A DNA stretch of 35,143 nt from Seison nebaliae (taxonomy: Eukaryota). Positions 677 through 33,332 of this stretch are shown here, piece by piece. Below the pieces are notes generated by a model, which searched no databases, was not told where the DNA came from, and saw nothing but the letters and a program-made list of their open reading frames with translations. The stretch is from assembly GCA_023231475.1 (NCBI GenBank), contig JALJEE010000053.1, positions 1 through 35,143 on the forward strand, read 5' to 3'. A program made the position numbers and the translations under genes. Every line of letters starts with the position of its first letter. The stretch's first letter is position 1.

Positions 677-1601
677 CTATTTCGTGAAGTTCTCATATAA
701 GTGAGTTTTCACTCCATAGTAATGAGTGCCAGCACCAATTATGACGAACAAGTGCCAGATGGCATGAGCGAACGGTATATAACCGTCAAGTTTGAAGAAG
801 ATGATACCGACAAGATAAGCCAATCCGCCAAATGACAATTCGAAAAGACCGGTGGTATAATTGATATGACTCTGAGAATGGAATGGAGTGAATGTTTATG
901 GAATTTGAGAGAGATAATATAAAACCAAATTAATTATTGAAATTGATGGTAATAATCCCACGAAAATGTAGAGGACAGTTTCCAACCATTTATATCTGTC
1001 GAATGGTTTATATAAAATTGAATTTAATTTTTGAATTTTCTAATGAATTTTAACTTTTCGTGAAAAATATATTGATAGGTGGTACCAGATATGGCACCGA
1101 ACCAGATGATGATGACAACACTTATATTGAAAGAGGAAGAGGTATCATTGGTCAACGTTAACCATGGAGTATAAGAGGCGGCAATGAAGATGTAGATCAT
1201 TGTACGATCTAAGTAATGGAAACATTGCTTAAATGGACAATATGTAGAACTTGAAAAAGATGGATTATGATTTTAATTCCGTCGAAAAAATCATTTCAAA
1301 CTTGGCGTTTAATGAGAATAGGTGGAATATGGACGATATGCAAAAGAGAGATATGAGAGCACTTCCATAAATAAGAGTATTGATCCAATGTAAACGAGTC
1401 GTTCCCAATTGGAAGAGTTGTATGATCTCACAAATAACGAAAGGAATAACAATCTAGGAAATTAAATGGAATTAAATTCTACACATTCTCATTATCAATT
1501 CCAACGGAATGCGTCAACAAATTAGCCCAATGTTCGTAGATGGTGGGGACATATGCTGTCATATTCGTTCCAGGTATATTTTTCCAACGTCTCCCGCACA
1601 T
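677..1601 (-). CDS. MMD: Monocyte-to-macrophage differentiation factor (PAQR/HlyIII family 7TM protein), 5 exons, about 235 aa; absent from the ORF track
   Basis: Exons 1601-1506, 1453-1302, 1249-1055, 995-926, 871-677 (708 nt) joined by GT-AG introns of 52, 52, 59 and 54 nt. Motifs [46 protein letters not shown] and [19 protein letters not shown] match the MMD/PAQR family. Confidence 0.93.
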
Positions 1602-2024
1602 AATTCCCTCTTTTACTTCTCAATGAAACAATGCCATCTTTTTCGATCGTCTAATCAGATTGGATTGATTTGAAAATTTTTCGGACGATATTAATCGAGG
1701 AGAAATGGAAATTGATAAATAATTTGGATTTTGTTCAATAATTTCTTTCGTATAAATGAGAGCTTAGCGATCACACAAAAATTGTGGATGATTTCATAGA
1801 TCGATAAGAAATGGAAAAATTTAATTTAATTTCTTTCCAATTCTTTCCATATAAAACAAAATTGAGAGAAATGAAAGTAGAAAAAATTGAAAAATTTTTC
1901 TTTACAAAACGAAATTAATAGAAATGAATTTGAAGAAAAATATTCACAAATACTTTCTTTTCCATCAACGCAAAATGAGAGAACAATTAATATAATTGAA
2001 AATTGGAAGAGATTCGATTGGTTT

Positions 2025-4214
2025 TTATTGTTCGATACATCGCCACAATTTCCTTTTGATATTGAGAATGAATTCATGACAAGAAAGATCACGGACATAT
2101 TGACTAAATGAAAAATGATGATGGAAATAGAAATGAGATAAACTAACAGATAATTCAATTGTTTATTCTTCTTATACTCATATTTCTGGAATAGTGCGCG
2201 AATGGCTATCAACTCATGATAATATTCCATTCCTTCGCACACATCCGTCCATAATTTCTCCATTATCTCATGGAATTTATCCGTCCTCTCATTGAAATAG
2301 AATAGTTGAAGTAGGAATTCATAAGTCATACCGAACACCATATCTTTATTCGCTTCTTCACATGTATCCTGAATAAACTGGTGAGAGAGAATGATAAATG
2401 AAAAATTAGAGGAGATGAAATTGTGGAAATTAACCTGCATCATTTTAATGGCATCTTCGTCATTTTTAATGAATTTGTGAAACATTTCTCGTAATGTGAC
2501 TGGATCGACGGGTAACTCTTTATATTCCACCTGTCATCACCATCATCATCACAAGTTAAAAATGGAAAAATAAAGAATTAGTAAACTTGGCTCGTTTCGT
2601 GATAAGGAGATTTCATACCGAGACCATGAAATATGTTATTCGATACGACATCTTTACGTCGGTATTCGAAGAAACGTTTGGCAGATGGAAGTCGAAATGT
2701 TGTCGTACCATCATCATTCGCGTCAAGAAACTAAGAAATGGAATGAAATTTGGATCAAAATGAAAGAGAAACATTTGTCATATATTTCTCCTTCTGAACA
2801 AATTCCATTAATTTTTTCTGGAAATAAATCGAATCGTTGTTAGTCAATTCGGGCAATTTTATCTTTTCCTGTTTCATTATTTTTCCCATTTGTCCGTCCA
2901 ATTCACGATCATATAAATACCAACTACAAATTAAACATTTAATATATTTTGGAAATTAATCGAATTAACATAAATGCACGAAAATGATCATTTGCCACAT
3001 AATTGAATTGTTCATCACAATTCCGTTTCTTTTCCACAATAATCGGTTCTTCCGATGGAGTATCACTGAAAACGATGAAAATATGAATGAATATCAATAT
3101 GAATAATAAATAGTACCGAAAACAAGCGAAGCTTCCCATATTGGTGAGGGGAATATTTTTATTATCTTTTCCCAGACAATCTTTCCCATAAATCATCGTC
3201 GTTTGTACATTGGGATCATCGAATGGTAATCGACAGAAATTGAATAAATGGAATTCATTCACAGCCAAAAAAACGAGTTCTTTTGCTTTCTGCATTTCTC
3301 GATCAATGAATTCCATCAACGCAAACGGTCCCACCAACATTATATCTAAATCGATCAGCGCAACTAAATTGAGGAGAATCACTTGAAATTCCATTTGAAT
3401 AATTAACGTAACGTGTCGGTTTCTTTGGTCGAAGGAATTTACAAAACTTATAAAATTTAACCATTTCCCAAGGAACATTCACATGACCATGAAAACCGTA
3501 TAAGAGAATGATATTCTCTTCCAACGACGTTCCCATCGGAATGACTTGTCTGTTGGCCACACCAGAATTCTCATACTCCGTACTGACTTTATGCCAGAAA
3601 CGTTTCCTTTTCCCTTTGGCATGACAAATATCCCATTCTTCTTCTGGAACATCGTTCAGATTGATCTTCTTCCTCCTCCTTGACGTCTTTTGCGACGGTT
3701 TCATTACCGTTTTCTTCGATTTATTTTCAATTTGATTTTTCTTCGATTTTCTCTCCACCACTTTTTTCGCTGGCGTTTTCTTTACAGTTTTCACCGATTT
3801 TGAATTGCTTTTCACAACTTTTTTCTTTAGACGTTTCGATGCTCGTTCTGATGGCAATCGATCTTTAGCCGTTCCATTATTCTTTCGAATAATTTCTATG
3901 ATACTTTTCGGTTCCATCGAACCGGTTTGGATACGAGTTCGAGAAGAAACACTAGTAATGGTTTTTGTGGAGTTAGTTGACGGGTTAGTTTCCTCCACAT
4001 TTTCTACTTTAATTTTCTTTATCATTTCATTCGGTGTATCAGTAACGATGGGAATAGTATGGTGATTATGATCATTTTCACAACAACTTTCCTCTTTAGG
4101 TACCTTTACTATATTGTCACCATCAGGATGAGGCATTAATTTCAAACGATAATCTTCTGGAAGGAGATTGGGATCGATGAAATCGTCCGGATATTTAAAC
4201 TCTTCCTCCACCAT
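2025..4214 (-). CDS. Uncharacterised protein, 8 exons, about 614 aa; Lys-rich region then a possible divergent PWWP-like domain and a helical C-terminus
   Basis: Introns 3364-3412, 3066-3116, 2924-2969, 2731-2772, 2531-2586, 2378-2434 and 2104-2147 (all GT-AG, 42-57 nt) give one open 1845-nt CDS. This joins track ORFs 3303..4223, 2939..3478 and 1826..2530. Confidence 0.75.
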
Positions 4215-4461
4215 AACTCTCACAACACACGGAAATAGAGAGAGAGAAGAATAAGAGAAGAGAAGAAATATTTCTAATCGGAAAGGAAAAAATGAAATGA
4301 AATTGCAATTGAAATAATCCTACGTCGTTCTTTATATGTCGAGAAAGGAGTAATGTTGTTTGTACAGAAAAAAGAAACGCGCAAAAAATAAAAATTAAAA
4401 GCAATTTTTTGAATTATTATTTCTCTTGTAAGATACATAGGTGAAAGCGTGTAACGAATAA

Positions 4462-4497
4462 GGAGAGAGAGAGAGAAAGAGAGAGAGAGAGGGAGAA
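4462..4497. repeat. (GA)n microsatellite, imperfect
   Basis: ggagagagagagagaaagagagagagagagggagaa read directly. Confidence 0.9.
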
Positions 4498-4522
4498 ATT
4501 TCAATCAGACACGTGTATCTAT

Positions 4523-6114
4523 TCAATATTTGAACTTGAATGGAAATGGGATTTCAGTCTGATTTTCATTTGTTAATATTAAATTTTTTTTCCGAAACAT
4601 CAATTGGTAAATTTGTTGGAGACGAATGACTGAGAGGACGGAGAGTTTAGTCAGAATGAAATCGAACGATTGAGAGAATCGGTCACGGAACATTTGAGCC
4701 ATCTCGTCGATGAGTTGGGAGCGAAAATCCAATTCTGATTTTTGTCCCATCAATCGCTTCACATGTTCGACATCGGTACGATGGAAAGATTGAATGAAAA
4801 TGAATAAAACAATCATATCGAATAGACATAATTGTCCATCATTGATCTTCGTTATCCGATACGATTTGAGATGAGACGAACAATCGGACAGTATTTTCTC
4901 GTATTGTTCTCGAAACTCCTTTTGACAATTTCTGATGATTGGAGAGAAATCGTCATCGAATCGATTGATTCTCGTCCCATGAGACAATTGATCGATATGT
5001 TGAATTAAAGGAATGTCATCCATTTGATAACGAAGGAAAATGAATGAAATGTAAACGATCTGCTCCAACTGATCACAGAACATGAAAGTAAAAAAATTTA
5101 ATTCTTCCTCGTCCAATTTCTGTTTCTTTTCGATCTTTTTCGGATTTCTTATCAATAGTCTCGTGAATTTAGTTTCTCCCACAATTCGTCTATCCGTCAA
5201 TTTGAGGAAAGAAATATAATTGTCTAATCTCATCACGTAAATACTGTCGGTTGTATCTCGTGCACTTTTCATCGCCAGTGCACAACTTCGAATAAGATGG
5301 AACATTTTTCCAATTAGTTCTCTCACTTCCACTCTCAATCTCTTCCAACTGGTCCGATATTGGAAATGTTCCGACTCACAACCGGTCGAAGTGGCGATGG
5401 ATAATTGTCGTTTAAATAAATCGAATAACGTCATTCGACTGGTAAATGGATCGGTGTTTGATCCACTTAAATTATCATCTACATTCGATCCTTCGAACAA
5501 TTTTCTTTCTCTTATTTCACCTTCTAAATTATTCTCTTCATTCTCCATCGTCTTCTCCACATTTATCCCATAAAAATCGTCGTGAGTTGTCGATGAACGA
5601 TTTGAACTGATATTACTATTAGTCGTTGAATCGATGGATTTATTATCATTATCATTATCATCATCATCATCTTCTTCTTCTTCTTCTTCTTCTTCATCAT
5701 CTTCATCATCCTTATCATCGTCATGATCTTCTATTGTGATAACTTCATTATCATTCACAGTCGTCGAACTGACTATCATTTGAGATTCATCCTTTCTCAT
5801 TTCATCTTCCAATTCCGATTCAGTTCTCGTCGAATCATTTTCTTGAAGATCCGATTCATTTTCCATTTTGAATTTTTTCCATCGTTTCCGCCACGAACGT
5901 TTATCGCCGACAGATAATTTCCTTTTTTTCCGTCGTCTTTTCACCTTCTTATCCACCAGACCTTACTCCCTCAATGATAAATGAGAATTGGGAGAATTGG
6001 AAATGAACTTGCTGTTAATATTTCGTGTTCGTTCTTCTCGTTCAACCAGTCGTCACACGAAGACGGTCCCACACGAAGTTTCCGTTTCAGTTTCTCCAAA
6101 AACAATTTTCGCAT
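4523..6114 (-). CDS. Uncharacterised protein with a basic NLS-like segment, a long Asp/Glu tract and a helical C-terminal domain
   Basis: Open frame 5956-4523. A 47-nt GT-AG intron (5962-6008) would join it in frame to an ATG at 6114 (514 aa). An internal start at MENESD is the alternative, so the 5' end is uncertain. Confidence 0.7.
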
Positions 6115-7065
6115 CGTCCATTGTTGAAATCGATAAATGACACTCTTTACAAGAGTGTGAGTGAAATGGGAAGAATGAAACTAAACTGCACTTTGTGATA
6201 ATTGATCAGTTATGTCATCGATCGATGGATCATGTGTCAACTCGCAAAAAACGATCATATAATTTAGCAACTAAACGGAAATTGGGGAGAATATGTAAAT
6301 GGAGAATGGTTAAACCCAATCACATGTCAATTGAGACAAATGCTCTCCAATCAACGTTATACAATGATCATCTTCCGGATTTCGATTATTTAAAAGAATT
6401 GCAAAACTTTTAATGAAAAAAAAAACGAATAAATTGCGAGGAAGAAAAGGAAATGTGCAACCGATTACGAATTAGAGTACTCTTCAACTCTTTCACCAAT
6501 GTCTCCATATGTCGAACGTTCAGAAAAACATCAACGCTAAACATTTTAAATTATCAGCAAACTCATTCTCTCATCAAATTCCCATTAGAACATAAGGGAA
6601 CTAATCGAATTATTTCAAAATGGCCAACAATTCCTTCAATCTCATCTTTTCCAATAATCACAAAAATTACTCACATTTTATCTCACCTTTTCACTTCCCT
6701 TATCCTTATTCGCCATTTCTCTAAAACTTACAATGATAATTAGAATATGAAATAAATTATAGAATATAATTTTCGATTTGTATCGAAATTACGTCAATTC
6801 AAAGTCAATAAACATTCGATAATTGTAATGCACTCACAAATGAGAATGAATGTGGAAAAAACTAATAAACGTGCATCATTTTAAGACATGATTGAGAATG
6901 TGAATTAAGAGTTGTTTGAAAAAAAATTTTACTCAAAAACTTTTTTTTTCGATATTCCAAAACTTTCAATTGTGAGCTGTCCTTTGAGGAATGGCGTGAT
7001 AAATTTTAAGTGAAATATTTAAAGATAAAAAGAAATTTAGAAATTTAGAAAATTCGTTTTTTAGA

Positions 7066-7710
7066 ATGACTGATAATAAGAAGGAAATTATTCTCTATAG
7101 TTATTGGAGGAGTTCGGCCTCGTGGCGAGTTCGTTTAGCATTGGCCCTGAAGAATATTCCTTACGAATATCGTTCCGTACATCTAGTGAAGGATGGAGGA
7201 GAGCAACATGGAGAGGAATATAAATCATTAAATCCGATGGAACAAGTACCAACGATGATTATCGACGATATGACGTTGACTCAATCGTTGGCGATCATTG
7301 ATTATTTAGAAGAGACGAGAGATGGTCCGTCGTTATATCCAAAGAATAAAAAGGATCGAGCACTGACGATGATGATAAGTGAAATCATCAATTCCGGTAC
7401 ACAACCATTACAGAATTTGACGATTCTCAAAACGATGGATGAAAAGAAAAGGAAAGTGTGGGCGAAGGATGTGATCGGGAAAGGATTATATTCTTGTGAA
7501 GAAATCATGAAGAAATGTTCGGGAAAGTTTTCCGTCGGAAATCAATTCTCTCTCGCTGATTGTTGTCTCATTCCGCAAGTGTATAATGCGTTACGTTTCG
7601 ATGTAGACATGAACCGATTTCCAACCATCACAAAAGTGATGAGTCAATTGAAGTCTCTACCAATTTATGCGATTGCTTCTCCAGATAGTCAGTCCGATGC
7701 TCCGAACTAA
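7066..7710 (+). CDS. GSTZ1: Glutathione S-transferase zeta / maleylacetoacetate isomerase, intronless, 214 aa
   Basis: LYSYWRSSASWRVRLALALK (zeta SSA/SSC motif), LNPMEQVP, TQSLAIIDYLEE, SGTQPLQNL, LADCCLIPQVYNA. Confidence 0.96.
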   Translation: MTDNKKEIILYSYWRSSASWRVRLALALKNIPYEYRSVHLVKDGGEQHGEEYKSLNPMEQVPTMIIDDMTLTQSLAIIDYLEETRDGPSLYPKNKKDRALTMMISEIINSGTQPLQNLTILKTMDEKKRKVWAKDVIGKGLYSCEEIMKKCSGKFSVGNQFSLADCCLIPQVYNALRFDVDMNRFPTITKVMSQLKSLPIYAIASPDSQSDAPN

Positions 7711-8681: not shown

Positions 8682-9636
8682 TTATTCGATGGCATCGCCT
8701 CCTTTTTCCGCAATGAAATTGATTCGTTGTCGGACTAATCGTTGACATTCCTGACAAATGTCCTGACATGAAGTATGTTGTGTACAATGGAGAGTAGAGG
8801 TATCGGTAGCGTCGAAATCTTCGTCTGTCATTTCTGAACCGATACCGGGCAATTGTCGAATTAAACGAAATTTCTCACAAGCAATTCTCAATTTGCGACG
8901 AATCGATTCCAATACCGCCTCCAAATGACGAGAACGAGCTAGTAAGAAGGAATTTTTCGTTCCATTATCCAACTCGTTATATCGTTGATGAGTAAGTAAG
9001 GTAGATGTGTTGATCGAATGTTTCATATGTTCACAACAACGACGAATAACGTCAGGAAAATTATAGTTTTGTCCAATTAATAAGTTGTTGATACTTCCAC
9101 GTTGAGTCATGAGAAATTGACGACATCGTTTCGTCAACTCACTCATCTGATACTCGTCAGATAACTGCAATAATAGAGTGACGTTCTCATCTTGGAATGT
9201 TGGAGGGAAGAAGAAAAAGATGAATAGAATTTAATAATAATTAGAAATGACACAATTTCTCGTCCAACCAAATGAGGAATAAATTAAAGTGAAACAAACA
9301 GGAAATCATTGAAAACAAAATCAAATTCACAATATTCGTTCTCATACCTGAAATCTCTTTATTTGGTGGATAAATAACTTGTAGTAATTCGGAAACGTCA
9401 GAGAACCGTTTCTCCGAAATCGTCACTACATTCGACGATTTCTCCAGGAAATCGGCTTCGAACATTCGCTGAAAAACTGGCGACCACAACGACAAAATGG
9501 ATCGATGACAATGTAATTGTTTCCCCTCCACCACCAACTGTACATCAGTGAACGGTAATTGCTCATCAAAATTAATCAACTGTTTCTTCACCTCATTATT
9601 CGCGTCGGATGAAACGGTTTTCGAATTATTACTCAT
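8682..9636 (-). CDS. BTB/POZ domain protein (invertebrate BTB-MATH/bath-like type), 2 exons
   Basis: FTDVQLVVEGKQLHCHRSILSLWSPVFQRMFEADFLE BTB motif. Intron 9191-9347 (GTATGA...AAG, 157 nt) restores IYPPNKEISDENVTLLLQLSDEYQM. Confidence 0.9.
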
Positions 9637-9943: not shown

Positions 9944-10008
9944 AAGAAAAAATATTATAAAAATGAATTGAAGAAAAAATATTATAAAAATGAATTAAAG
10001 AAAAAATA
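9944..10008. repeat. 27-bp tandem duplication, about 2.4 copies
   Basis: aagaaaaaatattataaaaatgaatt(g/a) twice plus a partial third copy. Confidence 0.85.
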
Positions 10009-18200: not shown

Positions 18201-19759
18201 GGGGGACAGATCGTAACCCTATATCAAAATTTTGCAGCGGACAGTTCTCAGCCTAGTTTTTTATACTTCCGGACAGTTCTCAACCTTCTATTAATTTTTC
18301 GAACAGTTCTCAACCTTTTATTAAGTTTTCGGACAGTTCTCAACTTTTTTTCTCAATTTCGGACAGTTATCAACCTGTTTTTTCTATTTTCGGACAGTTC
18401 TCAACCTTTTGAAAAAAAAGGACAGTTCTCAACCTCCAAACATAATGAAAATTAAACTGAAAAAATAATAACCGTACATAAAAATCCTCCAGAGGACCGT
18501 TATTAACTCATAATCAGGACAGTTCTATACTTAGTTTGGTTTTACATGTCATGTCAGCCACATTATATAATTTATTGGTTTATCTGAAACAATAATTCCC
18601 AGTTAAAGATTAAGAAAGAAATTTAAGCCATCCAATTAATACGTAAATAGAATTCTATTTGGCACAACTAATCGTATTATAAATATTATACAATATATTG
18701 ACATTGCATTGACATATATTGCAATAAATTTGATTATTGCTGCTAATATTGTTATTTTTTAAATCTTCAACATTAAACTACCAAAAAAAATGTTCAATTT
18801 TGAAGATGACGAAGAATGGAGGAGATATCTACCACCAAATGAATTCCTGCCTCGGGAAATATTATCAACAGTACTTCCAACATCTGCACCATCTTCAACT
18901 ACTTCATTTCAACCATTTTCAACCACATTGACAGTCATCATCAGAACCAGGATGAATTCCTCGGACCTAAACAGATCCTAACGGAATCCCAAACAACTCA
19001 ACAAAACAATCTAATAGAGGGGAAAAATTACGGTCCATCAAAATTTAGGCAGATTTTTCCATTGAACCGTCCATCATTGATAATTTTCGAAAATTCGTTG
19101 GTAAAATGTTTCAAATGTGAAAAATTGCAAATGAATCTTTTTCGGAAAGGCGAAAGAAAAAGAGTATCCGAAAGGTGGAAGATGAGAAACTGAAAAGATT
19201 AGTAATTAATTCGACCTAAGAAATGTATGTTCTTTTTTTATTGAAATCGATAACATATTTTGTGAAAGTCTCGAGCAATAAATAACAATCTTCTTAATTT
19301 TTCATTTGAACAATTTAAAATGCTAAAAAGAGTTATTATATAAATTCCTATAATTATGACTTAATAGTTTTCCTCTTGCGAATTTACAGTTTCAGTGTGT
19401 TTTGAAGTTGAGAACTGTCCCTTTTCCTCAAAAGTTTGAGAACTAATTATGAGTTAATAACGGTCCTCTGGAGGATGTTTATGTACGGTTATTATTTTTC
19501 CAGTTAATATTTCATTATGTTTGGAGGTTGAGAACTGTCCGTTTTTTCTCAAAAGGTTGAGAACTGTCCGAAAATAGAAAAAGCAAGTTGAGAACTGTCC
19601 GAAATTGAGAAAAAAAAGTTAAGAACTGTCCGAAAACTTAATAGAAGGTTGAGAACTGTCTGGAAGTATAAAAAACTTGGTTGAGAAATGTCCGATTTTT
19701 GGGTTGAGAACTGTCCGCTGCAAAATTTTTATATAGGATTACGATATGTCCGGTTACCC
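18201..19759 (+). mobile_element. Internally deleted DNA transposon with ~320-350 bp sub-repeated TIRs, Mutator/Phantom-like, carrying transposase-like remnants
   Basis: 18204-18522 is an inverted copy of about 19407-19751, built of GGACAGTTCTCAACC units at ~30-bp period plus a shared unique block (aaatcctccagaggaccgttattaactcataat). Internal fragments NNLIEGKN...KFRQIFPLNRPSLIIF and RKVEDEKLKRLV resemble the MULE transposase C-terminus. Confidence 0.85.
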
Positions 19760-21087: not shown

Positions 21088-22188
21088 TTATGTTGATTGA
21101 ATGTGATGAGATATATGAGATTGTTCTGCGATAGGTGAAATGTTTTTCGAAAGTAGAACAGTTTCTCGAAATTGAGTAGATGCCAAAAGATAATAAAAGA
21201 ATCGAATTGAATGAAGAATAATAAAGAATGGTCGTAAGATGGATAGAATGATGATATCGTTCGCTTTCGATTGATTGATGGAGAAAGCGAATAAATAAAT
21301 ATCGACAGGTAAAGCGAATAGAAGGAAGTTAAAACTCATTACAAGAAGAATAATGGAAATTTTTCGAATAAATTTCGATTTTTTTTCACATTGAATATTA
21401 TTGATAGAATTTGAGTTGTTGTCTTGTGTAACTTTATTGAGTGAGGATAGATAGACAGTAATAATGATTGATGTAACAACCATGAAGGAACTAGGTCCGA
21501 GAGAATAAAGAATTGTATGAAGAAGAGAATGGACATTAAAAAAATATTTTCTCCATCCATCATTAGTGAATTGACAAAGTTGTGGATTTGAAGAAAATTG
21601 ATAAACGAAATGTAAAGGAATAACGCTGATTAAAGAGATGATGGCTAAAGTGATACAAATCACATGAGTATAGAATGAGCCTTTGAATCTTCCATGATTG
21701 AATGAGCGAAGAATATTGAGAGCACAACTGGATGATTTGTGGAATAATCTTTTAGCACAATTCGTTTCATTCTCCAGTGATTGTCGACAATTATGAAGTA
21801 ATTTACTTTGATGTGCACTAGTAATGACTAGACATTGATGAAGACAACTTGTACATAAGATGAAGGAACTCCATTGTAGGGCGAAATAGCGAAATGTTCG
21901 TTTAGTTTGACATAGAAATTCATTTCCGCTACTAATGTCAACGTCGAGAATTGATGCTAACGTAAAATTGATACCACAACCAAAAAGAACGAGTAAATCG
22001 GCGAGACTTAGCCAAGCGAAATAAATAAATGTTGGAGATCGAAATCGTTTCTTGTAAATGTTGAGAAGGAATATAACGATAGAAATGGCATTTAACGGTA
22101 TGCCAATTAGAACTATAATTCCGATGATATAATTATAAGATATTCTTTCGATTTGACGTGCAAATTGGATATGGGAAACCATCGTCAT
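21088..22188 (-). CDS. Rhodopsin-family (class A) GPCR, FMRFamide-receptor-like/invertebrate peptide or chemoreceptor type, intronless, 366 aa
   Basis: Seven hydrophobic segments. TM1 GIPLN, TM2 FAWLSLADLLVL, Cys at top of TM3 (FLCQ), TM6 FLLFALP, TM7/H8 RFFYYLLASTQFR. Confidence 0.9.
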   Translation of the reverse strand: MTMVSHIQFARQIERISYNYIIGIIVLIGIPLNAISIVIFLLNIYKKRFRSPTFIYFAWLSLADLLVLFGCGINFTLASILDVDISSGNEFLCQTKRTFRYFALQWSSFILCTSCLHQCLVITSAHQSKLLHNCRQSLENETNCAKRLFHKSSSCALNILRSFNHGRFKGSFYTHVICITLAIISLISVIPLHFVYQFSSNPQLCQFTNDGWRKYFFNVHSLLHTILYSLGPSSFMVVTSIIITVYLSSLNKVTQDNNSNSINNIQCEKKSKFIRKISIILLVMSFNFLLFALPVDIYLFAFSINQSKANDIIILSILRPFFIILHSIRFFYYLLASTQFRETVLLSKNISPIAEQSHISHHIQST

Positions 22189-22817
22189 GGCTAGGAATGT
22201 GAAGAAATAATATTTTTAATTTTTCATAAACAATACGGGATGAATTAGATAAATCAAATTAGCAAGTCAATGTGAAGGAAATTAGAGTGTTTTTGTCAGA
22301 AAATTTACATCTGGAAATTTCTGTAGGATTTGTAAGAAATTCGAATTATGTGGAATGAAGAAGGATTTCTTCTCTCCTTACATCCATTCGATTTGTCAAG
22401 AGATTCATGATCAATTCATTTCATTCGAATGAACGAAAGATTAATAATTAATTGAAGTGGAAGAATGGGATGATGAATTTGAATAATTCGATGAAGGAAT
22501 TCGTTTTCTAAATGAAATTTTTATTTGAATTGAAATTGATGAATAAACTGAAGAGGAGAAAGAAAGTTGTATGAACGTAATGAAATTAATTAAAACTTTC
22601 AATCATAGTCGTAAAATTAGTATTTGCATAAGAAGAGGAAGAATAAATAAGAAAATATAATGAAATAGGAAAGGAATGTTGCATGATTAATAAAAAAGAT
22701 TGAGATGGGATGATTCACAAATGATCTTTGCACAAGATTAAAGAAATGAAATTGTGAAGGGACAAACAGATAGATCATTACCAGGGAATTTATATTTTAT
22801 TAGGAATATATCGGAAA

Positions 22818-25800
22818 TTAAATAATCTTCCCATTCTTTATCGGAGTAAAAAGTTTCGTTCGTAAATTGTTTTTCACTTCGTTGAACGTACGAGATAAAG
22901 GAGTCGTATTTGGACCAATTCGATTATTTGAATTTCTTACCGAATTATTCATTCCTAATAATTCTCGCGTATCATCCTCCTCATTAATCAGATGTTGTTT
23001 GTCCTCTTCGAAATCGTTGGATGATGATAATAATTGAATTTCTTCATTTCGATTCAACGAGAAACTACGACCGATTTTCGATAATCGATTATTCGACGTA
23101 TCAACTTGATCCATAAATTTTCCTTTTGCATTCGAATGACGTTTTCGTTTCTTCTCCTTCTTATTCAGGAATGAATGATGAATATCACCAGGATCTGTTT
23201 CCATATCGGTGGCAGGATCAAATAAATTATTTCGATTTCCTTCACAATTATTATTTGAATTATTCACATTATAACTATTTCGATTTTTAATAATGCGAAG
23301 AAGAAGACCTTCATTATTATCGTTGTCATGATAATGACCGTTCTTTCTTTTCATTTTATCGAACTGATATCTCTCCTTCTTCATATTGGAACGAATAAGT
23401 AATCGACGAAGACATCGTTGTAAACGACGAAGACAACAACGTGAGACGAAAATGAAGAATAAAAGAAATGAGAATAAAATGAAGAAAAAAGATGATAATG
23501 CCACATAAAAAATACTCCAATCACAATTCTCTTCATATAAAATATTTCTTCTCAACCATGATGACATCCAATAAGTGCCACAAATACAAACATGTGTCAA
23601 CGGTTCACAATAACCGTGATTGGAGCATTGATTCGAACAAGTTGATGATCGGATATCGAATAATAATAAAGACTTCCTCGTTTTATCATTAGTTCGATTC
23701 ATAAAGAAATTCATTTCATTATAATCCATTGTACGGAAAGTATCGATCAAACGTTGTTCCACTATATCACTTTTCATTTGACGCCATTTTCTTCTGACTG
23801 ATTTCGAACTTTTCAAACGTTCCCACACAATTAATCGAACTTGAATGAGACAACCGTGTAATGAACAAACTCCACGACGTTGAGTCAACGAATTCAATTT
23901 GAGACTATGTTGATCATCTTCTGGTGAGAGATCATGAAGATCTCCTTTGATTCGACGATCCACTACCATCGTCTCATTCAACAAAATATCAATCTCATCA
24001 TGATGATCAATTTTTCGTTGTGTTTCATTCAACTTCCCATAATGATAATGAAGAGCGACTGATCCACTCATTTGTAACGAATTGTCATTATATGGAATGG
24101 GCGAATTATAAGAGTACCAAGGCCAAGCCCAATTTTGAGATTTAAATAAACCTAATTGACTTGGAGCTAATACTCGCTTCCGTCCTAACATGTCCAATTT
24201 GAGTAGTTGACGATAAATAATATCTTTAATTTGAAATCGATAATATTTCTTCTCATTATCCGATTTGGTTTGATCGAGTAATTTTTTTAATCGTCGAACT
24301 AATGCCAATAATTCTCCATATGTCATCAGATCTCTTTCTTCCGATTTACTCCATAGAAGTAATTCTAATTCATTCTTCATTTCAACCATCTTATCAATTT
24401 CAACTAAACATTCATCACTCGCTGATAAATCGTCGGAATCGGTTACCGTTAAACGGAAACGATATGATCCTGATGGAATCATTTTCAGATTAACATAAGC
24501 GAGTGAATCATTCTGATTTTGGATTATTGGGAAAACTGAAGAATCATGAACATTCTCCCAATAATACTCTTTCGATGTCAACGATTCGTCAGATGTTAAT
24601 TCACCGTCCAAAAATAGGACGGTATCGTCCGTATTATTAATTTTTGTTAATTTCTCCAATTTCATTTTCGTTTGTTTCGATTCTTTCAATAATCGAAGAG
24701 ATGTATAACATCGAACTTCTACTTCTGGTGCGTAATTTTTCGCTTTGATAAGACTGAGATGTAATTTCGATGAGAGAATAATCGGTGATGATAATTCTGA
24801 TGATGAATCGATTTTATTCGAATCTTCATCAATTGACAAACTGTCAATATAACTTTTATGATCAACATTACTCAACGAATCGATAGAAAAGATAATTTCA
24901 AATTCATATTCCCCAACATACAACGAAGAGATGTTTGTGATAAATGAAGTCGGTCGATCGATAACGGCGATCGATCCATATAATTGTTTCCATTCAACTG
25001 ACGATGTAATTTCAATGAGTGACGGAGCTGATAATTTCTCCGCATCAACTGACACACTCAAACCATTGAAATTTCTATAGACGGGAATTGTTGTATTAGT
25101 TTGAATGGAAATATCATTTGAATTTTCCACTTCAATTGTTTGATAGAAAATTTGTGTTTTGTTCATCATCGAATGATCAAGTGAATGCCAAATGACTGTA
25201 AGATTACTATTGGGATAAATGACAGGTCTCGTCTTCTTCCACCAATGAGGATTCTCTCGAGGTGAAACGATACGTAATTCATATGTCTGTGTATCGATTT
25301 GATCGGCACCATCAGTGACGGTTAAATTAACGGAGAATTTTCCTGGTTGTAAATTCTTCAATTTCAAAATTGAAGTATGACTTCCTTCGATATCGATACT
25401 ATGTGAATCATCTTTCGAATTCAGTTTCCAATCATATCTCACAATGGCTTTATCGTCAGTCGAGGAATTTCCATAAAGGAAAACCGTTTCTTTCGGTAAT
25501 TGAACGATCATTGGACCTGTTATAACAGCGACCGGTTTCAAATCTTTCTCTTTGAAAACTTCGAATTGGACGCGACTTGAATTAGTGTAACCGATTTTAT
25601 TAGTAACGGATAATTCGAAGATATATGATCCTTGAATCATTTGATCGATTTCGATGAATTTTGAAGAGAAATCTTTCGATTTGATTTGTTTCACCATATT
25701 CTCATGATCTTTCAAATTGGGCACATCAGTCAATTTGAGAAATTTCCATTTATATGCCGTAATTCCAAAATCACATTTACTTCCTGACGCATCTAAAACG

Positions 25801-27164
25801 AGTTTAGCTGGGGCGAATAATTCTTTTGTTGACAATTGAATGATAGGTAAAGGGAGAACTTTCGATCGATTATAAATTAATAAAGTCACTCCAGTTTCTA
25901 ATATAATATTATTAGTTGGTGAATGCCATTTTAATTGAAATTTTTCTTCTCCTTCTTTATTGGGAGTACTAATTTTGAGATGGAGAAGATTGGTAATATT
26001 TATTTTGATGTTACTCGTTTGATTGAGAATAGAGAGTGTAAAATGTCGAAGATTCATTTCATCAACATCCAAATTCCTCTTATATAAATGATGGAAAATG
26101 GTGAAACTGATAAGTTTCGTATCATTCTTTGCCATATGTCTCTCTTGTTCTGAACTCACCATAAATATTTGATTGGATTCAATCGAGAAGAATTTCAAGA
26201 GATTTTCATCCTCAATACAATACGATTCATTTTTCGATGGCGTTCTCATATAAGTCAATCCCATTTGACATCCACAATATCCAGTTTTCGTCATATCATT
26301 AGCGAAGATACATCGATGAAAATCATAATGACAATTTGTATCATATTTCACGTTATTTTTATTCTTCACATTATTATTGTTGATGGCATCATTTTCTGGT
26401 GAATCGATGGCATTCTCTTGGAGAATGGAACAAATCATCGTTTGTGGTTGATATTGACAAATGTGATCAGATTGAAATTGTTTCCGAAATCGTTTCAATT
26501 CCTCAACATTTTCCAATTGAAGGAGATTTGATAATGGGGAATTAGTGGGAAGAAATTCTTCTTCGAATGTCAATAAATCTGGTAAATAATATTTTTTACA
26601 GATACACATATTTAACGATTTCTTACCATCATGAAATGGTTCACATTGTTCATTGGGACGTTTCGAACAAGTTCCATTACATTCACTTTCTTTCACTTCC
26701 AATAATTTTTTCAATCGATCAACATTTGTCGAGTGATGAATAAATGATGTTCGATCAAACGCCATCACTTTTTCTACACTTCGAATTACAATTAAATAAT
26801 TCTTTCCTTCATTTATCTCATCAACATGTTTCACGAGATTCTCTTTTCCATTTTTCGCCGAACACGATCCATCACTAATACAATTGATGAATGTACATCG
26901 ATTCTTCTTCCCGTTCCATTTGATGGTTTGACACGTGTCTTCCGATCCACAACATTCATTCAAACATTGACTTAACGTATAATTTTTTTTCGTTATCTTC
27001 TCTCCACTTTCCTCCCATTTCGTTTCACCATTTTCATAGAATTTTGGGATACAACCTTTCTCTATTTCAACTTTATTGATGACGAGAGAATGAATAAATA
27101 CGATGTTGACCAGAGCGACCAAAAATGGGACGGCCACAGCTACTTTGGTAGATGAACGACTCAT
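22818..27164 (-). CDS. KIAA0319L: KIAA0319-like / AAV-receptor family type I membrane protein, single 1448-aa ORF
   Basis: Signal peptide, Cys-rich MANEC-like region (CLNECC...C...W...C...C), PKD repeats (IVQLPKETVFLYGNSSTDDKAIVRYDW; GSYRFRLTVTD), EGF-like CSNHGYCEPLTHVCICGTYWM...ENCDWSIFYV, TM helix and cytoplasmic tail. Confidence 0.9.
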   Translation of the reverse strand: MSRSSTKVAVAVPFLVALVNIVFIHSLVINKVEIEKGCIPKFYENGETKWEESGEKITKKNYTLSQCLNECCGSEDTCQTIKWNGKKNRCTFINCISDGSCSAKNGKENLVKHVDEINEGKNYLIVIRSVEKVMAFDRTSFIHHSTNVDRLKKLLEVKESECNGTCSKRPNEQCEPFHDGKKSLNMCICKKYYLPDLLTFEEEFLPTNSPLSNLLQLENVEELKRFRKQFQSDHICQYQPQTMICSILQENAIDSPENDAINNNNVKNKNNVKYDTNCHYDFHRCIFANDMTKTGYCGCQMGLTYMRTPSKNESYCIEDENLLKFFSIESNQIFMVSSEQERHMAKNDTKLISFTIFHHLYKRNLDVDEMNLRHFTLSILNQTSNIKINITNLLHLKISTPNKEGEEKFQLKWHSPTNNIILETGVTLLIYNRSKVLPLPIIQLSTKELFAPAKLVLDASGSKCDFGITAYKWKFLKLTDVPNLKDHENMVKQIKSKDFSSKFIEIDQMIQGSYIFELSVTNKIGYTNSSRVQFEVFKEKDLKPVAVITGPMIVQLPKETVFLYGNSSTDDKAIVRYDWKLNSKDDSHSIDIEGSHTSILKLKNLQPGKFSVNLTVTDGADQIDTQTYELRIVSPRENPHWWKKTRPVIYPNSNLTVIWHSLDHSMMNKTQIFYQTIEVENSNDISIQTNTTIPVYRNFNGLSVSVDAEKLSAPSLIEITSSVEWKQLYGSIAVIDRPTSFITNISSLYVGEYEFEIIFSIDSLSNVDHKSYIDSLSIDEDSNKIDSSSELSSPIILSSKLHLSLIKAKNYAPEVEVRCYTSLRLLKESKQTKMKLEKLTKINNTDDTVLFLDGELTSDESLTSKEYYWENVHDSSVFPIIQNQNDSLAYVNLKMIPSGSYRFRLTVTDSDDLSASDECLVEIDKMVEMKNELELLLWSKSEERDLMTYGELLALVRRLKKLLDQTKSDNEKKYYRFQIKDIIYRQLLKLDMLGRKRVLAPSQLGLFKSQNWAWPWYSYNSPIPYNDNSLQMSGSVALHYHYGKLNETQRKIDHHDEIDILLNETMVVDRRIKGDLHDLSPEDDQHSLKLNSLTQRRGVCSLHGCLIQVRLIVWERLKSSKSVRRKWRQMKSDIVEQRLIDTFRTMDYNEMNFFMNRTNDKTRKSLLLFDIRSSTCSNQCSNHGYCEPLTHVCICGTYWMSSWLRRNILYEENCDWSIFYVALSSFFFILFSFLLFFIFVSRCCLRRLQRCLRRLLIRSNMKKERYQFDKMKRKNGHYHDNDNNEGLLLRIIKNRNSYNVNNSNNNCEGNRNNLFDPATDMETDPGDIHHSFLNKKEKKRKRHSNAKGKFMDQVDTSNNRLSKIGRSFSLNRNEEIQLLSSSNDFEEDKQHLINEEDDTRELLGMNNSVRNSNNRIGPNTTPLSRTFNEVKNNLRTKLFTPIKNGKII

Positions 27165-27634
27165 AATTGAGAAGGTTGGAAAAGATGTTTTTGGTTGAAT
27201 TGGAAAATATTCTTTTTGATTCTATTTTTCATTCATTTATTTTATTACTCATATACATGTATATGGATGGATGAATTAATTGAGAAAGAAATTTCCACAG
27301 TTGTTGTGTTTTTTCTTTATTTTTTTTATTCACTTCACCTTCCCTCAGATTGGGACGTATGTGGAGATGTTTGTGAATGAAAAATTCATAAAATTTATCA
27401 CTGCACGTAGCACAAACTTCTTTGATATGTTTAACAATTCTCCATTAACATTGGTCCTTCACTTCTCCAAATTTCTTCTTTTTCTTTTTTTCTCAATTTC
27501 TCATCAATTTCCTTTCCCATTAAATATATGGCTATTCTCAATTTATTTCTCACTAAATTCTTCTCACAATTATCAATTAAATTTCAAAAATTTATTTTAT
27601 AACAAATCAAGAAAGAATTAGAGGATAAATCAGA

Positions 27635-28603
27635 ATGAATTCAGTACAGAAACATGAACGATATCGTATTATGCAAAATACAAGTGCTTGTACGAATCAT
27701 GTCCAACATGTTCGTAGTTTGTTGGGCGAGAAGTTTTTGGAGCGAGCGAAAATCATTTCTCAAACTCTCGTTGAAGTGAACGAATCGAAAAATCCGAAAA
27801 AAATCGCCTTATTAACAGATCTGTTAAGTGATTTGAAAAAGACGATTGTCCGTACAGATTTAAGTGGATTGATCGGAATGTGTGATACACTTTTCAAACG
27901 TGATCCATTCGATCAATCTTATGCGAATCTTTTCCATTTCTCTTGTTCGAAGAATGATGTTGTTGATCATGAGAAGACGATGTCACTCTTATGGCAAAGT
28001 GAGATATTGGCGGGGAGGAATAAACCGAAAAAATATTACAATAATTTCTATAATAATTATCCGACATTTGATGCGAATGGAGAACGAAGTAATTTTCAAC
28101 ATTTCGGAATGAAAAATAGAAAAATTGAATTAGATCGATTGGAGTCGATGAATTTACCACCGAATCTTGTTCGAATGGATTTCTTGAAAGATTGTTCCAA
28201 AGAGAATTATATCCTTCAATTTAATATTTGCGATTTGATTGTCATTAATTTCCATGTGAATAAAATGGTCATTTATCAGACGACTGTCGATCCCATTTTA
28301 ACAAAAGAACAAGCTCGAATGAGAAATCATGTCAATCAACCACCAACTCAATCATTCTTTAATGATTCAGTCAATCATCATTCATCTAGTCAACGTTTAG
28401 AAATGATTCTACATGGAGCACTTCGTAATACGGCTGATCCAAATGAATATATCATGAACGTCATTACATATTGTAACAGAAATTTGAGAAGTATTCAAGT
28501 CTGTCCCAAATGTGGTCAATTAGTGAATAAAGGAGAAGTGATAGAAGCACATCGTTTTAACGATATCCCAAATTGCCACGAAGGATGTCGACATTTATTA
28601 TAA
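27635..28603 (+). CDS. MED27: Mediator of RNA polymerase II transcription subunit 27 (divergent), intronless, 322 aa
   Basis: Length, helical N-terminus and C-terminal zinc motif CPKCGQLV...HEGCR match the MED27 CxxCG...HxxCR end. Confidence 0.7.
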   Translation: MNSVQKHERYRIMQNTSACTNHVQHVRSLLGEKFLERAKIISQTLVEVNESKNPKKIALLTDLLSDLKKTIVRTDLSGLIGMCDTLFKRDPFDQSYANLFHFSCSKNDVVDHEKTMSLLWQSEILAGRNKPKKYYNNFYNNYPTFDANGERSNFQHFGMKNRKIELDRLESMNLPPNLVRMDFLKDCSKENYILQFNICDLIVINFHVNKMVIYQTTVDPILTKEQARMRNHVNQPPTQSFFNDSVNHHSSSQRLEMILHGALRNTADPNEYIMNVITYCNRNLRSIQVCPKCGQLVNKGEVIEAHRFNDIPNCHEGCRHLL

Positions 28604-28791
28604 TGATTTTAAAACATTCATCAATAATCAATAATCATCTGATTAAATTACATTAATTTTATTGACAATTGTAAATATTTTTTAAAATTTAAATTAATTA
28701 AATAAATTTAAAATAAAAATTTGATAAATTGGATTTGATTTTAAAAAAAAAATGATTATTTTAAAATTTCATATATTCCCCCAACAAACAA

Positions 28792-31700
28792 TTAAACAAC
28801 GGCTCTAGTTTTCAATAATTTATTTCGGAATAATTTCTTCCGAATTCCAAAAATAAAAATTTCGGCGAGTACGATACAAATACCGATACCCAGACCAACA
28901 ACCACCATCATGAACACTTCTGCCATATTTCTGATTCCCAGAGTGGCAGCACTCGCTTCCGATACGCCAGATTGTCGTCGAGGACAAGTGGCTTCAATTT
29001 GATTATTATTTTGAGTTTTCTTCTTTAACTGTCTCATTTTTAGCCAGTCGATATGAGAAATGACATATTTGGCATAACTTTGAATTATTTGATTTTTTTC
29101 TGATGTGAAATTTTCTGATGAGAATGAATTGGTTGATGTATGATCAAATATATTCGATCCACCAAATAAATTCCATGCGAAAAGAATGATATTTTGAATG
29201 GTGGAGAGACTATCAACATTTTTCTCTTGGATTTCCAGTTTGTTTTTATAGAAATAATTCTTTTTCTTTTCATCTTCATCATCCTCATTATCATTACTAT
29301 GGATTGGTTCATGTTGTAAGAGAATCCATTTATTATCCAAATCTTCGATGAATCCTTCTTCGTGAACGATCAAAATTTGTTTTGAAATAATCGACGCCCA
29401 GAGACTACCTTTCTTTACTCCGAAGCCCAAACTACTCCGACCAAACAAGTCACCGACTGTTACTAATTCACACGATTTAGCCGCTTCATATTCCAATCGA
29501 CTTGAATGCCAAATAAATGCTTTCAATTGTCTTTTAAATTTTAAGTAGAAACATTTTAAAAATTCTTTAAAAATTCGGAATTTTCAAATAAAAATGAACC
29601 CACTCAACACGTCTTTTATGGCGTTTTTCGGATTATTATAATTATATTTCGACATCAGTCGACACATTGTCGACAATTCAACTTGTTGTTTGAAATATTT
29701 GTCAACTGATGAATCTTTGATTGTTGCAATTCGGAATTCATCTTGTGGATTTCTCAACTGAAAAAAATGGAAATGAAATTGATGAATGAAAAGAGAAAGA
29801 AATGACGAAGGAAAGTTTCGGCGATGACGAGAAAAAGTTAAAACAATTGAATGAAATTAAGAATAATGAATGATTGAAATTATAAAATTCTTCATTTGGT
29901 TTCATCGAAAACATAAGGACAATATATTAGTTTGAAACTGTGATAAGCTTTCATCAAAAATTATAAGATTTATTCAAAAAGAATTCATCCACAAGAATTA
30001 TTCATGTTCTCTTCAGGAATACCATCACGAAGAGAATAATGTACAAAACGTAATCGAGAAAATACCCATGATGATAGTAGCACTAACAGAACATTTCTCC
30101 CAATGAGATAAACATTCAGTTAATTTCCCATAATTTGATTATTCTCAACTTCTTGAAAGTTGGAGAAAACAATAATGTGAAGGTGAGAGAAGTGGACGGT
30201 TATCGTTACGCAGATGTACAAGATGGAAGGAGATAATAAGAAATAATAGAAATCATAATAGCAAAAGAAAATGAGATTATTCGATACCTTTTGCCCGTGG
30301 ATGATTAATGTCTAATTTGAAAAGAAGATGGACAATTGTTGGAAAGAAAAAGAAAATGTTTAAATGTTTCTAAAGAAGAACTAATATTTTATCACTACTC
30401 TTCATCATTCCAAGCTAAATTACTGGAAACTTATTGAGAATTTCCTTTCTACAACTTATACAATTCTCTCTCATTCAAAAATCATTTCACGAGGTTCTTT
30501 TTAGAAGACTATCCAATATCATACTAACTCGCACGTCATCTATGCCAGAAATGGACGCTTCAGGTTGATCTAACACTAAGAACGCGGCCAAGTTAGCAGT
30601 GTAAGAAGAGACGACAATCATTGAGAATCCAGCCCAAACTATCCCCAAAATACGTCCAGAAAACGACGTTGGTCTCACTAGAGAAATAATCGAAAATTTT
30701 TTTAAATTTAAAGTTTAACAATCGCCAATTCCACTGCCGAGTAAGACGCCCCAAGTGAACCAATGTGAGTTGAGGAATGAGACATCGTTGGAAGAATCTT
30801 CATGATATTTTCGAACAAATTCATGATCCACTTTATTTTGAACCGTTTTCTCATCCATCATCAACATACTTCCTTCATTCTTTAACTTATCGATCAATTC
30901 CTTCAAATTCTCTAATGACGGTTCTTTTTTCATGAAACTTTTTTTCCGTAATTTTTTCGAAATTGTCGGTGAGAATCGATCTAATAAATATAAAGTGGCT
31001 GCTATCACTTCAACACTCAACAACACAACGAGCCATAATCGATATTGGAAAGGTTGGAGGAATGACGTTAAACTCGAATCTTTTTCTTTCTAACAATTTG
31101 TTTAAATAAATATAAATTGTCTTTATAGAAAAAGGAAAATAAATTAGAGAAGAAAGAAGAACTTTCTTCATCAACAATATCATTCCATGATATTTGAATG
31201 GTTTAGTAAAATCGATGACAGCTGATCTTTCGGCATTGATGGGTAATGGTGCGATAATCAGATCGGCTTGTTTCGAAAGAACTTCACCGACCATTCCTAT
31301 TTAAATATCTCGTAAAAGTTGAAAAGAAAGAGAATGAAAACCATTCCAGGATTTAGTGGTGAGATTATAATCACCATAATTATTATCAGCAACCAGATGT
31401 AATTCGAAAGAGAAATTTAATTTACTCTCTAATCGATAGAGGAGATCGATACAATAACCGAAACAACAATAATCGACAATTCCATTAGTGGTTAATTGTG
31501 GACAATAAGCTTCCCGAATATAGTTCGATTTATTTCTTCTACAATTTTTTCCTTTTCTTTTAAAAATGAAAGGAATCTCGTCAATCGTCACAATTAATAG
31601 ATGTGAATCGACTTTCACCCCTTTCGGCAATGCATATGAGCCACCCGGCCACATCAATTTCTCATGTTGGAATAATGTCAATCGACTTCCATACGACATT

Positions 31701-33332
31701 TTCATTGTCTCCTATTCGAAATTATTGATCAAAATCAAATTGATAGCTCACCAAAAAAACATTAAGAAATATTCAAAAATGATAAATACCGAAACAAATG
31801 ACAAATTCAAAAACAAATAATTAACTAACAAGAATAATCATAAGTTGTAAGTTCTATATAAATGAGAAGACAAACATCCACAAAGACAAGAAGAAGCACG
31901 ATTTTTGAGGAAGCGCATTTAAAGTTACCTCGACATTACTCTAGAAAAGGTTGGGCATACAAGTAAGGGAGGTGAAAAGGAAGGGAAGGGAATGAAAAGA
32001 AAGAGAATGAGAAAATGAACGAGAATTTTGAATCCATGCACTGCCTTATACTCTCCCACCACATTCAGCACATTGTGTTTCATATTCAACAATTGATATT
32101 TGAACAAATTAGTGGGAGTATAAACGAGATTTTTTAAATTCCTTCAAACAACAAAATTCGAATGAGAATTCTAATAGAAATGAACTTGATCAAATTTTTT
32201 CCCGTGGTAAATTTGATGAATGTTCCCGCGCTACATTCGTCCACAGGAAAATTTTCCTTTCTCAATGGTCGTTTCAATTGAGTGATGGCAACTTCGATAT
32301 ATGTCTGGAAATTTCACGATTTTTTATCATGGTTTTTTCGTGAATAAATGAGAGAACTTTATAAACGAAATTTAAGACACTGATTAAATCGACATTATTG
32401 AATGGTTTCGATTTCCATAAATCGAACGGTCGAAGAAATGGTTCGTCGATTATGGTTCGAAAACCGATAGTTCCATCAGGTGGAATGGATGGATGTTGAG
32501 CATTTAGAGCTTCTTCGTTGACGATCCAAAGGAAACCGATTTCAAATAAACCCATTTCTTTCGCTGATTTGAAAATATATCCAGCATCATGTTGACTAAT
32601 ATTGAAGATGAATGAAAATAATTTGAAGAGAAAGTGAAGAAGAAACTTCGCATAAAATAAAATGACTCGAGGTTCATATTCATTCAAATATTTCAAATCA
32701 TCTTTATATGATTTCTTTCCACTCTCATAAATGAGAACATGTTCGATACGATAATCAAAAACGTCAATGAGAGTTCTCAAATAATCTAAATGTAATTGAC
32801 CTTCGCCATCCGAACTGGTGAGGAAGACAAGACGACGATATTGAACTCGTTCAATTAAGGCTAGCCATGCCTCCGTCACATGTGCGAACGATGGTACAAG
32901 ATGGATAGTTGCAGGAAATAAATTATAATTATGCAACATTGTCGTACGAGTATTAAAATCGATGAGTGGAATATCATAATTAGTAGCGAGATAATAAAAT
33001 GCCGTTTTTATTAAAACATTCACTTCTCGAATGAAGACGTCATTAGATGTGGCGTCAATGAAAAGGAAAGATCGACGTATTTTTTGTTGTTGACAGAGAT
33101 CGTGAATTAATTGGAATGCATGATTATCTCGATAATCATCGATGAGATAGAAAGTTGCATTGAATTTCAAATTTTCCAAAATTCTCTTTATTTCCGTTCG
33201 TTGAACGACATCACTGAGAATGGTGATATGTTCGAATGAATTGCCATTTTCTAACAATTTTATCCGATTGTTCGATGAGACATTTATTATGGAATTGAAG
33301 AGAAGAAAAAGAAAAATTTGAAGAACTCTCAT
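28792..33332 (-). CDS. GRIN1: NMDA receptor GluN1-like subunit, 11 exons, about 1031 aa, atypical at key residues
   Basis: Introns 32596-32646, 32305-32357, 32142-32185, 31941-32020, 31712-31928, 31297-31341, 31090-31162, 30678-30719, 29758-30528 and 29531-29599 give an open 3096-nt CDS. Motifs [59 protein letters not shown] and [13 protein letters not shown] are GluN1-type. Confidence 0.95.

Follow-up and report, generated by a model that had tools for sequence, protein, structure and literature searches.

In Seison nebaliae, the introns of a 35,143-nucleotide (nt) contig begin overwhelmingly with GTT: the third intron letter (+3) is T at 24 of 27 donors, A at three, and C or G at none (95% interval for GTT 71–98%). 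Animal introns usually start with GTA or GTG, and a +3 purine is regarded as almost universal among them; here this canonical animal trait is found at only 3/27 donors. Since 24 of 27 introns start with GTT, the splicing machinery likely reads the third intron letter differently, a change so far described mainly in amoebae. The GTT excess on this contig is real and confirmed, and we favour, at a probability of roughly 0.45, the explanation that the major spliceosome of Seison prefers U at +3 in the normal pairing register, most likely through a changed U1 small nuclear RNA (snRNA). The stretch analysed – hereafter the window – comprises positions 1 to 35,143 of contig JALJEE010000053.1 (forward strand, assembly GCA_023231475.1), and homology searches matched its proteins to deposited Seison nebaliae entries: SNEBB_009570 (MMD), SNEBB_009572 and SNEBB_009579 (GluN1). 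Seison is a seisonid of Rotifera/Syndermata that lives on crustaceans and has compact genes (PMC8351084; here and below, papers are cited for the accessible parts of their text).

The sample is thus one contig, with 27 donors in five intron-bearing genes, 26 of them taken from deposited gene models and one – in a BTB gene – called by hand. The deposited Seison proteins mapped to the window exactly, with a single solution each, although GC and AT donors and AC ends were permitted. The models hold four introns in MMD, seven in a gene with an HPF1 domain and four in SNEBB_009572, while GluN1 has 11 distinct donors across three deposited isoforms, with two 24-nt cassette exons. GTT predominates in each of these genes: 4/4 in MMD, six GTT and one GTA in the HPF1-domain gene, 4/4 in SNEBB_009572, and ten GTT and one GTA in GluN1. 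The initial annotation of this DNA, working from 25 hand-inferred introns, had counted 22 GTT and three GTA; its claim of GTT dominance holds in the larger set, its 4/4 for MMD is unchanged, and its 9/10 for GluN1 becomes 10/11 distinct donors.

Beyond the third letter, the donors are loose. All 27 introns have GT..AG termini, and 22/27 are 42–73 nt long. U12 introns carry the donor motif RTATCC, which is found at 0/27 donors; the Seison introns are major (U2-type) spliceosomal introns. G occurs at −1 in 9/27 donors and at +5 in 6/27, both together in 1/27 and neither in 13/27; +4 is T in 10/27, and no hexamer accounts for more than 4/27. The weak flanks had been noticed before (+5 G in 5/25, −1 G in 7/25), as had the retention of +5 G in two of three introns over 100 nt (157 and 771 nt); in the present set it is found in 3/5 introns of at least 100 nt vs 3/22 shorter ones, and the two long introns that combine GTT with +5 G read GTTAGT. 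Looseness extends to the acceptors (−3: T 13, A 7, C 7), and YTRAY and TNAY branch-point matches lie at scattered distances with no fixed position, no null having been computed for them. As a separate observation, four of the 27 donors begin GTTCATTT.

That T-rich introns simply supply a T at +3 is rejected by each of three backgrounds. T makes up 45.7% of intron bodies, A 27.3%, C 17.2% and G 9.8%, against which 24/27 has a binomial P=5e-6, so that the GTT excess goes beyond intron T content; taking instead the frequency of T after T within introns (50%), P=2.5e-5. After intron-internal GT, T follows in 32/75 cases, and after unused GT at most 40 nt from the donor in 23/64, which differs from the donors by Fisher P=2.6e-6. 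The surrounding positions are near background composition at +4 and at +6 to +10, while +5 is poor in T (5/27, P=0.006).

A subtler form of this idea combines a relaxed code with composition: the preference for A has been lost, only C and G are excluded at +3, T-rich introns that avoid TA supply the T, the snRNAs stay canonical, and the short G-poor introns are recognised by cross-intron definition. We consider this, the main rival to the preferred explanation, unlikely, though it accounts for a good deal. After T, intron bodies are 50% T and 15% A, with which 24/27 is compatible (P=0.105); C and G together are absent at +3 (0/27 vs 35%, P=9e-6); TA is avoided generally, GTA making up 11% of Val and CTA 15% of Leu codons; the positions beyond +3 are, as just said, mostly near background; and human sites show a contact of U with pseudouridine of U1 at +4 (PMC4856993). 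It fits less well with the short introns, 21/22 of which have T (P=0.03), with the ratio found after GT (P=0.006), and with the −1 G present on all GTA donors (P=0.029). Losing both the G option and the A preference would, moreover, itself be a change, and bdelloid-like introns with a similar T:A ratio (0.72) show 20 T among 94. Were it true, Seison would still have animal donors of very low information, and the finding would be less surprising.

The initial annotation had also proposed that these tiny introns are set by length and pyrimidine content. Part of this stands: 22/27 fall within the narrow length range given above, the bodies are G-poor, and, relative to 50 unused GTT (many of them exonic), true GTT donors are followed at +7 to +25 by less G (1.0 vs 3.0) and more pyrimidines. 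For a given acceptor and a length of 40–75 nt, 9/22 introns have no rival GT and 16/22 no rival GTT. Length and pyrimidines alone give no account of a +3 that is 89% T without C or G, and a weak signal in the canonical register persists (−3 C, −2 A, +5 purine); the simpler model, with A or U allowed at +3 and TA avoided, also fits. Apart from this, CATT (31 vs 18.9), ATTC and TCTC are enriched in the short introns over dinucleotide shuffles, while bdelloid-like introns show TATT and TGTT instead; CATT, which could be an intronic enhancer word, was the top of 256 words tested and was picked out post hoc.

To what extent could the excess have been written into the models? Training of the gene finder on this genome itself, or the accident of five genes on one contig, might overstate GTT: 26 of the 27 donors come from deposited models whose method is not stated, the HPF1-domain gene and SNEBB_009572 lack a usable outside homologue, and a canonical-looking AAG/GTGAGA (the slash marks the exon–intron boundary) lies upstream of the SNEBB_009572 start. 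We give this reading very little credence. A spliced aligner blind to +3, which sees only GT/GC..AG, was given five references from outside Seison for each gene. In GluN1 it placed six donors (in 5/5 runs) and in MMD four (three in 5/5 runs, one in 4/5), and all ten are GTT. On other animals the same aligner yields ordinary donors. The reading frame alone makes 19/22 short introns obligatory, and in 9/19 of these GTT is the only GT donor option within 45 nt, five of them also lacking a GC option. Finally, 4/4 multi-intron genes agree.

All 27 introns lie on the minus strand. In MMD (HlyIII family), the four introns of the deposited model are 1454..1505 (52 nt, TCC/GTTGGA), 1250..1301 (52 nt, CAA/GTTTGA), 996..1054 (59 nt, AAA/GTTAAA) and 872..925 (54 nt, TTG/GTTTTA); +3-blind alignment places the first with 4/5 references and the other three with 5/5, and the third was also put to the reading-frame test. 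In the HPF1-domain gene, the seven hand-read introns are the same seven as in deposited model P0027: 3364..3412 (49 nt, CAC/GTTACG); 3066..3116 (51 nt, TCG/GTACTA, the GTA donor), in frame and stop-free; 2924..2969 (46 nt, TAT/GTTAAT), with a sole frame-compatible donor; 2731..2772 (42 nt, AAT/GTTTCT), with GTT options only; 2531..2586 (56 nt, CAA/GTTTAC), which went through the reading-frame test; 2378..2434 (57 nt, CAG/GTTAAT), in frame and stop-free; and 2104..2147 (44 nt, TCT/GTTAGT). Model P0026 of SNEBB_009572 has introns at 6407..6461 (55 nt, TCG/GTTGCA), 6271..6315 (45 nt, TGG/GTTTAA, the sole frame-compatible donor), 6145..6186 (42 nt, GCA/GTTTAG) and 5962..6008 (47 nt, CAA/GTTCAT, reading-frame test). 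The BTB gene intron (9191..9347, 157 nt, CAG/GTATGA, a GTA donor) was called by hand from two Pfam BTB halves and an open junction.

GluN1 carries most of the comparative evidence. Six of its introns stand at ancestral positions: 32596..32646 (51 nt, GAA/GTTTCT), 32142..32185 (44 nt, CAA/GTTCAT, a sole frame-compatible donor), 31090..31162 (73 nt, AAA/GTTCTT, also in the reading-frame test), 30678..30719 (42 nt, ATT/GTTAAA), 29758..30528 (771 nt, CGA/GTTAGT; 217 nt, to 30312, if the second 24-nt exon is included) and 29531..29599 (69 nt, TGG/GTTCAT); all are in the deposited models, and all except 32142..32185 were placed by +3-blind alignment in 5/5 runs, as was 31297..31341 (45 nt, ATG/GTTTTC), whose position is intronless in the comparison loci. 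The intron at 32305..32357 (53 nt, AAA/GTTCTC) follows the deposited model in a poorly conserved region and is not fixed by homology. Deposited isoforms supply the rest, around cassette exons at 31830–31853 and 30288–30311: 31854..32020 (167 nt, CTC/GTTCAT; 309 nt, to 31712, if the exon is skipped), 31712..31829 after the first cassette exon (118 nt, CTT/GTTAGT) and, in isoform P0025, 29758..30287 after the second (530 nt, AAG/GTATCG, a GTA donor). The second cassette exon adds eight residues where five homologues align gap-free.

Is the pattern shared with other animals? Here the comparison covers one gene, GluN1. From a metagenome scan we took the best 80 of 169 GluN1 loci, 70 of which yielded intron calls with the same aligner; after dropping calls with a margin below 10 and duplicates, 105/187 calls remained in the 19 loci nearest Rotaria (hereafter bdelloid-like) and 147/221 in 51 others. 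These calls are not independent, because homologous introns recur. A tree built from 55 of these loci, the other 25 being excluded as short or frameshifted, unites those nearest Rotaria in one clade (support 1.0), together with two long-branched fragments, L041 and L042, which were counted among the others; three further loci, L045, L070 and L073, adjoin Seison and may be other rotifers. At +3, bdelloid-like introns have A 74, T 20, G 8 and C 3 (n=105), and the other loci A 86, G 34, T 17 and C 10 (n=147); Seison differs from the former by Fisher P=2e-11 and from the latter by P=2e-15. L045, L070 and L073 have GTT at 3/13 donors and bdelloid-like loci at 20/105; GTT as a shared rotifer trait finds no support in this sample, which includes no acanthocephalan. 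Since the GTT excess lies above intron T and is absent from both bdelloid-like and other animal GluN1 loci, it looks lineage-specific, as the initial annotation had supposed. As an aside, the aligner called GC-AG introns (GCAAGA) in the GluN1 loci L017, L018 and L026.

The bdelloid-like introns resemble those of Seison in most other respects: a median length of 54 nt, bodies with 44% T, shared positions and a +5 G frequency (50/105) below that of other animals. Unlike those of Seison, they have A at +3 in 74/105 cases, and 19/20 of their GTT donors are compensated by G at −1 or +5; their acceptors also show a stronger T tract (−5 T in 81/105 vs 12/27 in Seison).

Compensation differs as well. 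Among other animals, 36/37 GTT donors have G at −1 or +5, while 23/160 GTA donors have neither; donors with GTT and neither G number 13/24 in Seison vs 1/37 in other animals (P=4e-6). Counted over all donors, neither G is present in 13/27 Seison, 20/105 bdelloid-like and 3/134 other calls. Within Seison the relation runs the other way, −1 G being present at 3/3 GTA donors vs 6/24 GTT donors (P=0.029). The compensation rule is inverted in Seison. No other result speaks as strongly for a replacement of A by U, although its GTA side consists of three sites.

The introns themselves are old. Of ten Seison GluN1 intron positions examined, six match other animals in column and phase, and all six are GTT; at the same six positions elsewhere, GTT is found in 25/158 calls, from which near-identical loci were only partly removed, and at three of them bdelloid-like loci have GTT in 0/9, 0/12 and 0/9. 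At the ancestral phase-1 junction at 30719 (minus strand), −1 is G, within a Gly codon, in 41/41 other calls, and T, within a Leu codon, in Seison. Six GTT introns at ancestral positions indicate that old introns have been recoded. We also considered mobile, introner-like introns and rejected them: the best of 231 pairwise similarity scores among Seison introns is 29, no higher than the mean shuffled maximum of 29.7, and together with the shared positions this points to recoding rather than a burst of mobile introns.

The preferred explanation – U at +3 in the normal register – can be put in terms of U1. The Seison donor consensus is roughly (C)(A)N/GUUN(R)U, and the demand for G at −1 and +5 is relaxed. 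Outside +1 to +3, the 24 GTT donors make 72 normal-register U1 matches vs 54 expected (P=0.002), with −3 C in 9/24; this and the other register tests use crude backgrounds and no multiple-test correction. Pairing with canonical U1 is poor, at a mean of 5.6 pairs vs 6.9 and 7.6 in the comparison sets, and placing A at U1 position 6 raises the Seison mean from 5.6 to 6.4, on a par with bdelloid-like donors paired to the same variant – a gain that is not independent evidence, because this U1 was selected to match the data. The predicted change is of the U1 base opposite +3 to A, that is, from ACUUAC to ACUAAC. The extra pair at +3 would let donors drift at −1 and +5, GTA would be a weaker variant needing −1 G, and the remaining specificity would come from cross-intron definition of a 42–73-nt, G-poor, pyrimidine-rich body; the same preference might alternatively belong to a protein of U1 or arise at the hand-over to U6/Prp8. 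An Rfam scan of the window gave no matches at E up to 1, and hence no snRNA within it. In the full scenario, a U1 with A opposite +3 would make GUU strong and GUA weak; recoding would have reached thousands of ancestral introns while the other donor positions decayed, and alternative splicing of microexons would have been kept. We put this forward tentatively, as possible and on balance doubtful.

In another arrangement, canonical U1 would pair one base deeper, +3 U taking the place of the invariant +2 U while GTA donors stay in the normal register. Such shifted sites exist in human genes (PMC4856993), and the shift would account for the near-fixed +3 U, the low −1 G and the G that every GTA donor has at −1; A stands at +5 in 11/24 (P=0.04), shifted matches number 67 vs 56 expected (P=0.04), and GCA/GTTTAGTTT at 6186, the best candidate, fits. 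We nonetheless regard this as decidedly improbable, as the key +6 G stands at background (2/24, P=0.70), neither −1 A (10/24, P=0.27) nor −2 C (4/24) is enriched, and the normal register fits better (P=0.002).

Selection for +3 U might also act after an unchanged U1, either at the hand-over to U6 (a U–G contact with the ACAGA box) or on an altered surface of Prp8, SNRNP27K, Luc7 or U1C. The Entamoeba donor GUUUGU, as has been noted, might gain pairing with U6 if the ACAGA of the latter stayed as it was (10.1101/2022.06.08.495308), donor commitment takes place mainly at the U5/U6 hand-over (PMC11732430), and +5 is a purine in 16/24 GTT donors vs 37% (P=0.003). Against this, +5 G, the main U6 pair, is present in just 5/24 GTT donors, and other animals, which should likewise have an unchanged U6, disfavour +3 U; overall we find such late selection quite improbable.

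Several points weigh against a +3 preference carried by U1. Most lineages with atypical donors retain canonical U1, and yeasts, Thecamonas and Micromonas with an atypical +4 have it unchanged (10.1101/2022.06.08.495308). A rule allowing only A or U, at the after-T ratio of 0.77, fits 24/27 (P=0.105). The homogeneity of Entamoeba donors is not matched in Seison, and the Seison side of the GTA compensation argument comprises three donors. In the window's coding sequence, GTA (110 vs 159) is more depleted than GTT (263 vs 280), and AGGTT (2 vs 9.1) and AGGTA (2 vs 6.1) are both low, so that GTT is not shown to be the stronger donor; cryptic-site avoidance there does not separate GTT from GTA. Relatives are already GTT-rich at some shared positions (bdelloid-like 8/13 and 3/5; L045, L070 and L073 3/3). 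The aligner, finally, made two in-frame calls in 5/5 runs that the deposited models keep coding (30938, GTT; 29297, GTA), and in the poorly conserved stretch 32380–31709 it made unstable, low-margin calls, some of them GTG or GTA, which were not counted.

The remaining contents of the window are more varied. The HPF1-domain gene (2028–4214, minus strand) encodes a 614-residue protein in which a long lysine-rich N-terminal region precedes the HPF1 domain (Pfam PF10228); the Pfam match speaks for HPF1 rather than SUZ12, which had also been considered. It is one of the intron-bearing genes. Upstream of SNEBB_009572, a candidate exon (6716–6646, minus strand) outside the deposited model ends AAG/GTGAGA before a 41-nt intron; no frame was found joining it to SNEBB_009572, and, if real, it would bring a canonical donor. 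Five intronless genes are single open reading frames (ORFs): a glutathione S-transferase (7003–7707, plus strand), a G-protein-coupled receptor-like ORF labelled by eye (21091–22215, minus), a KIAA0319-like PKD protein of 1467 codons (22821–27221, minus), a 324-codon ORF for which no Pfam match exceeded the cut-off (27629–28600, plus) and a proteasome subunit (33429–34157, minus); they point to intron loss. Between 10000 and 17000 (minus strand) lie long coding-like stretches broken by in-frame stops, with no usable gene; a Pfam search with 13 pieces of this region gave no match, and the stretches are possibly decayed genes or elements. An element at 18204–19751, with a partial extra copy to 20164, has long inverted arms of ~30-nt repeats around an unclassified core, the appearance, we presume, of a foldback or miniature inverted-repeat (MITE-type) DNA transposon; a second inverted pair is found at 17008–17140/17457–17589.

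The closest known parallel is Entamoeba, in which GUUUGU(U) donors, present in 88–90% of introns, have co-evolved with a U1 reading ACAAAC, as Roy and Bowser describe (10.1101/2022.06.08.495308). As in Seison, U dominates +3 of major-type GT-AG introns, the introns are short and the organism is host-associated; in Entamoeba, though, a single hexamer prevails and +4 U and +5 G are fixed, while Seison retains only the U at +3. Seison, in turn, is an animal with cassette microexons in its deposited isoforms. Animal 5' splice sites have been sorted into two classes, AG//GUNNN and NN//GURAG (PMC11732430): the Seison introns match this scheme in their GT..AG ends, in the rarity of −1 G and +5 G together and in the −1 G class of their GTA donors, and depart from it in the 13/27 donors with neither. 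The human shifted-register and U-pseudouridine sites (PMC4856993) share the GUU start and the low canonical U1 pairing, but are rare exceptions where GUU is the rule in Seison, whose +6 G is not enriched. Among animals, the copepod Eurytemora affinis, with GA/GG donors (PMC5714493), has a deviant donor code likewise noticed in glutamate receptor genes, altered at +2 in ~12% of introns, whereas Seison keeps GT and is altered at +3 in most. Neither an account of splice signals in Seison nor an animal dominated by GTT turned up in the literature searched – figure logos, databases and subscription journals being outside its reach – and no Seison donor data appear in the accessible parts of PMC8351084 (including its two supplements), PMC10125929, PMC11347168 or PMC10639083.

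Seison, in short, has a real and apparently lineage-specific donor code, in which the +3 purine is lost and half of the donors fall outside both recognised donor classes. Gene finders with a standard animal donor model would mis-score its genome. While the change in Entamoeba was accompanied by strict, uniform signals, that in Seison goes with loose ones, and an ordinary outgroup – the bdelloid-like loci, with the same intron sizes and positions – makes Seison a natural experiment in the change of a splice code across existing introns, as well as a suitable animal in which to ask whether U1, U6 or proteins fix the +3 letter.

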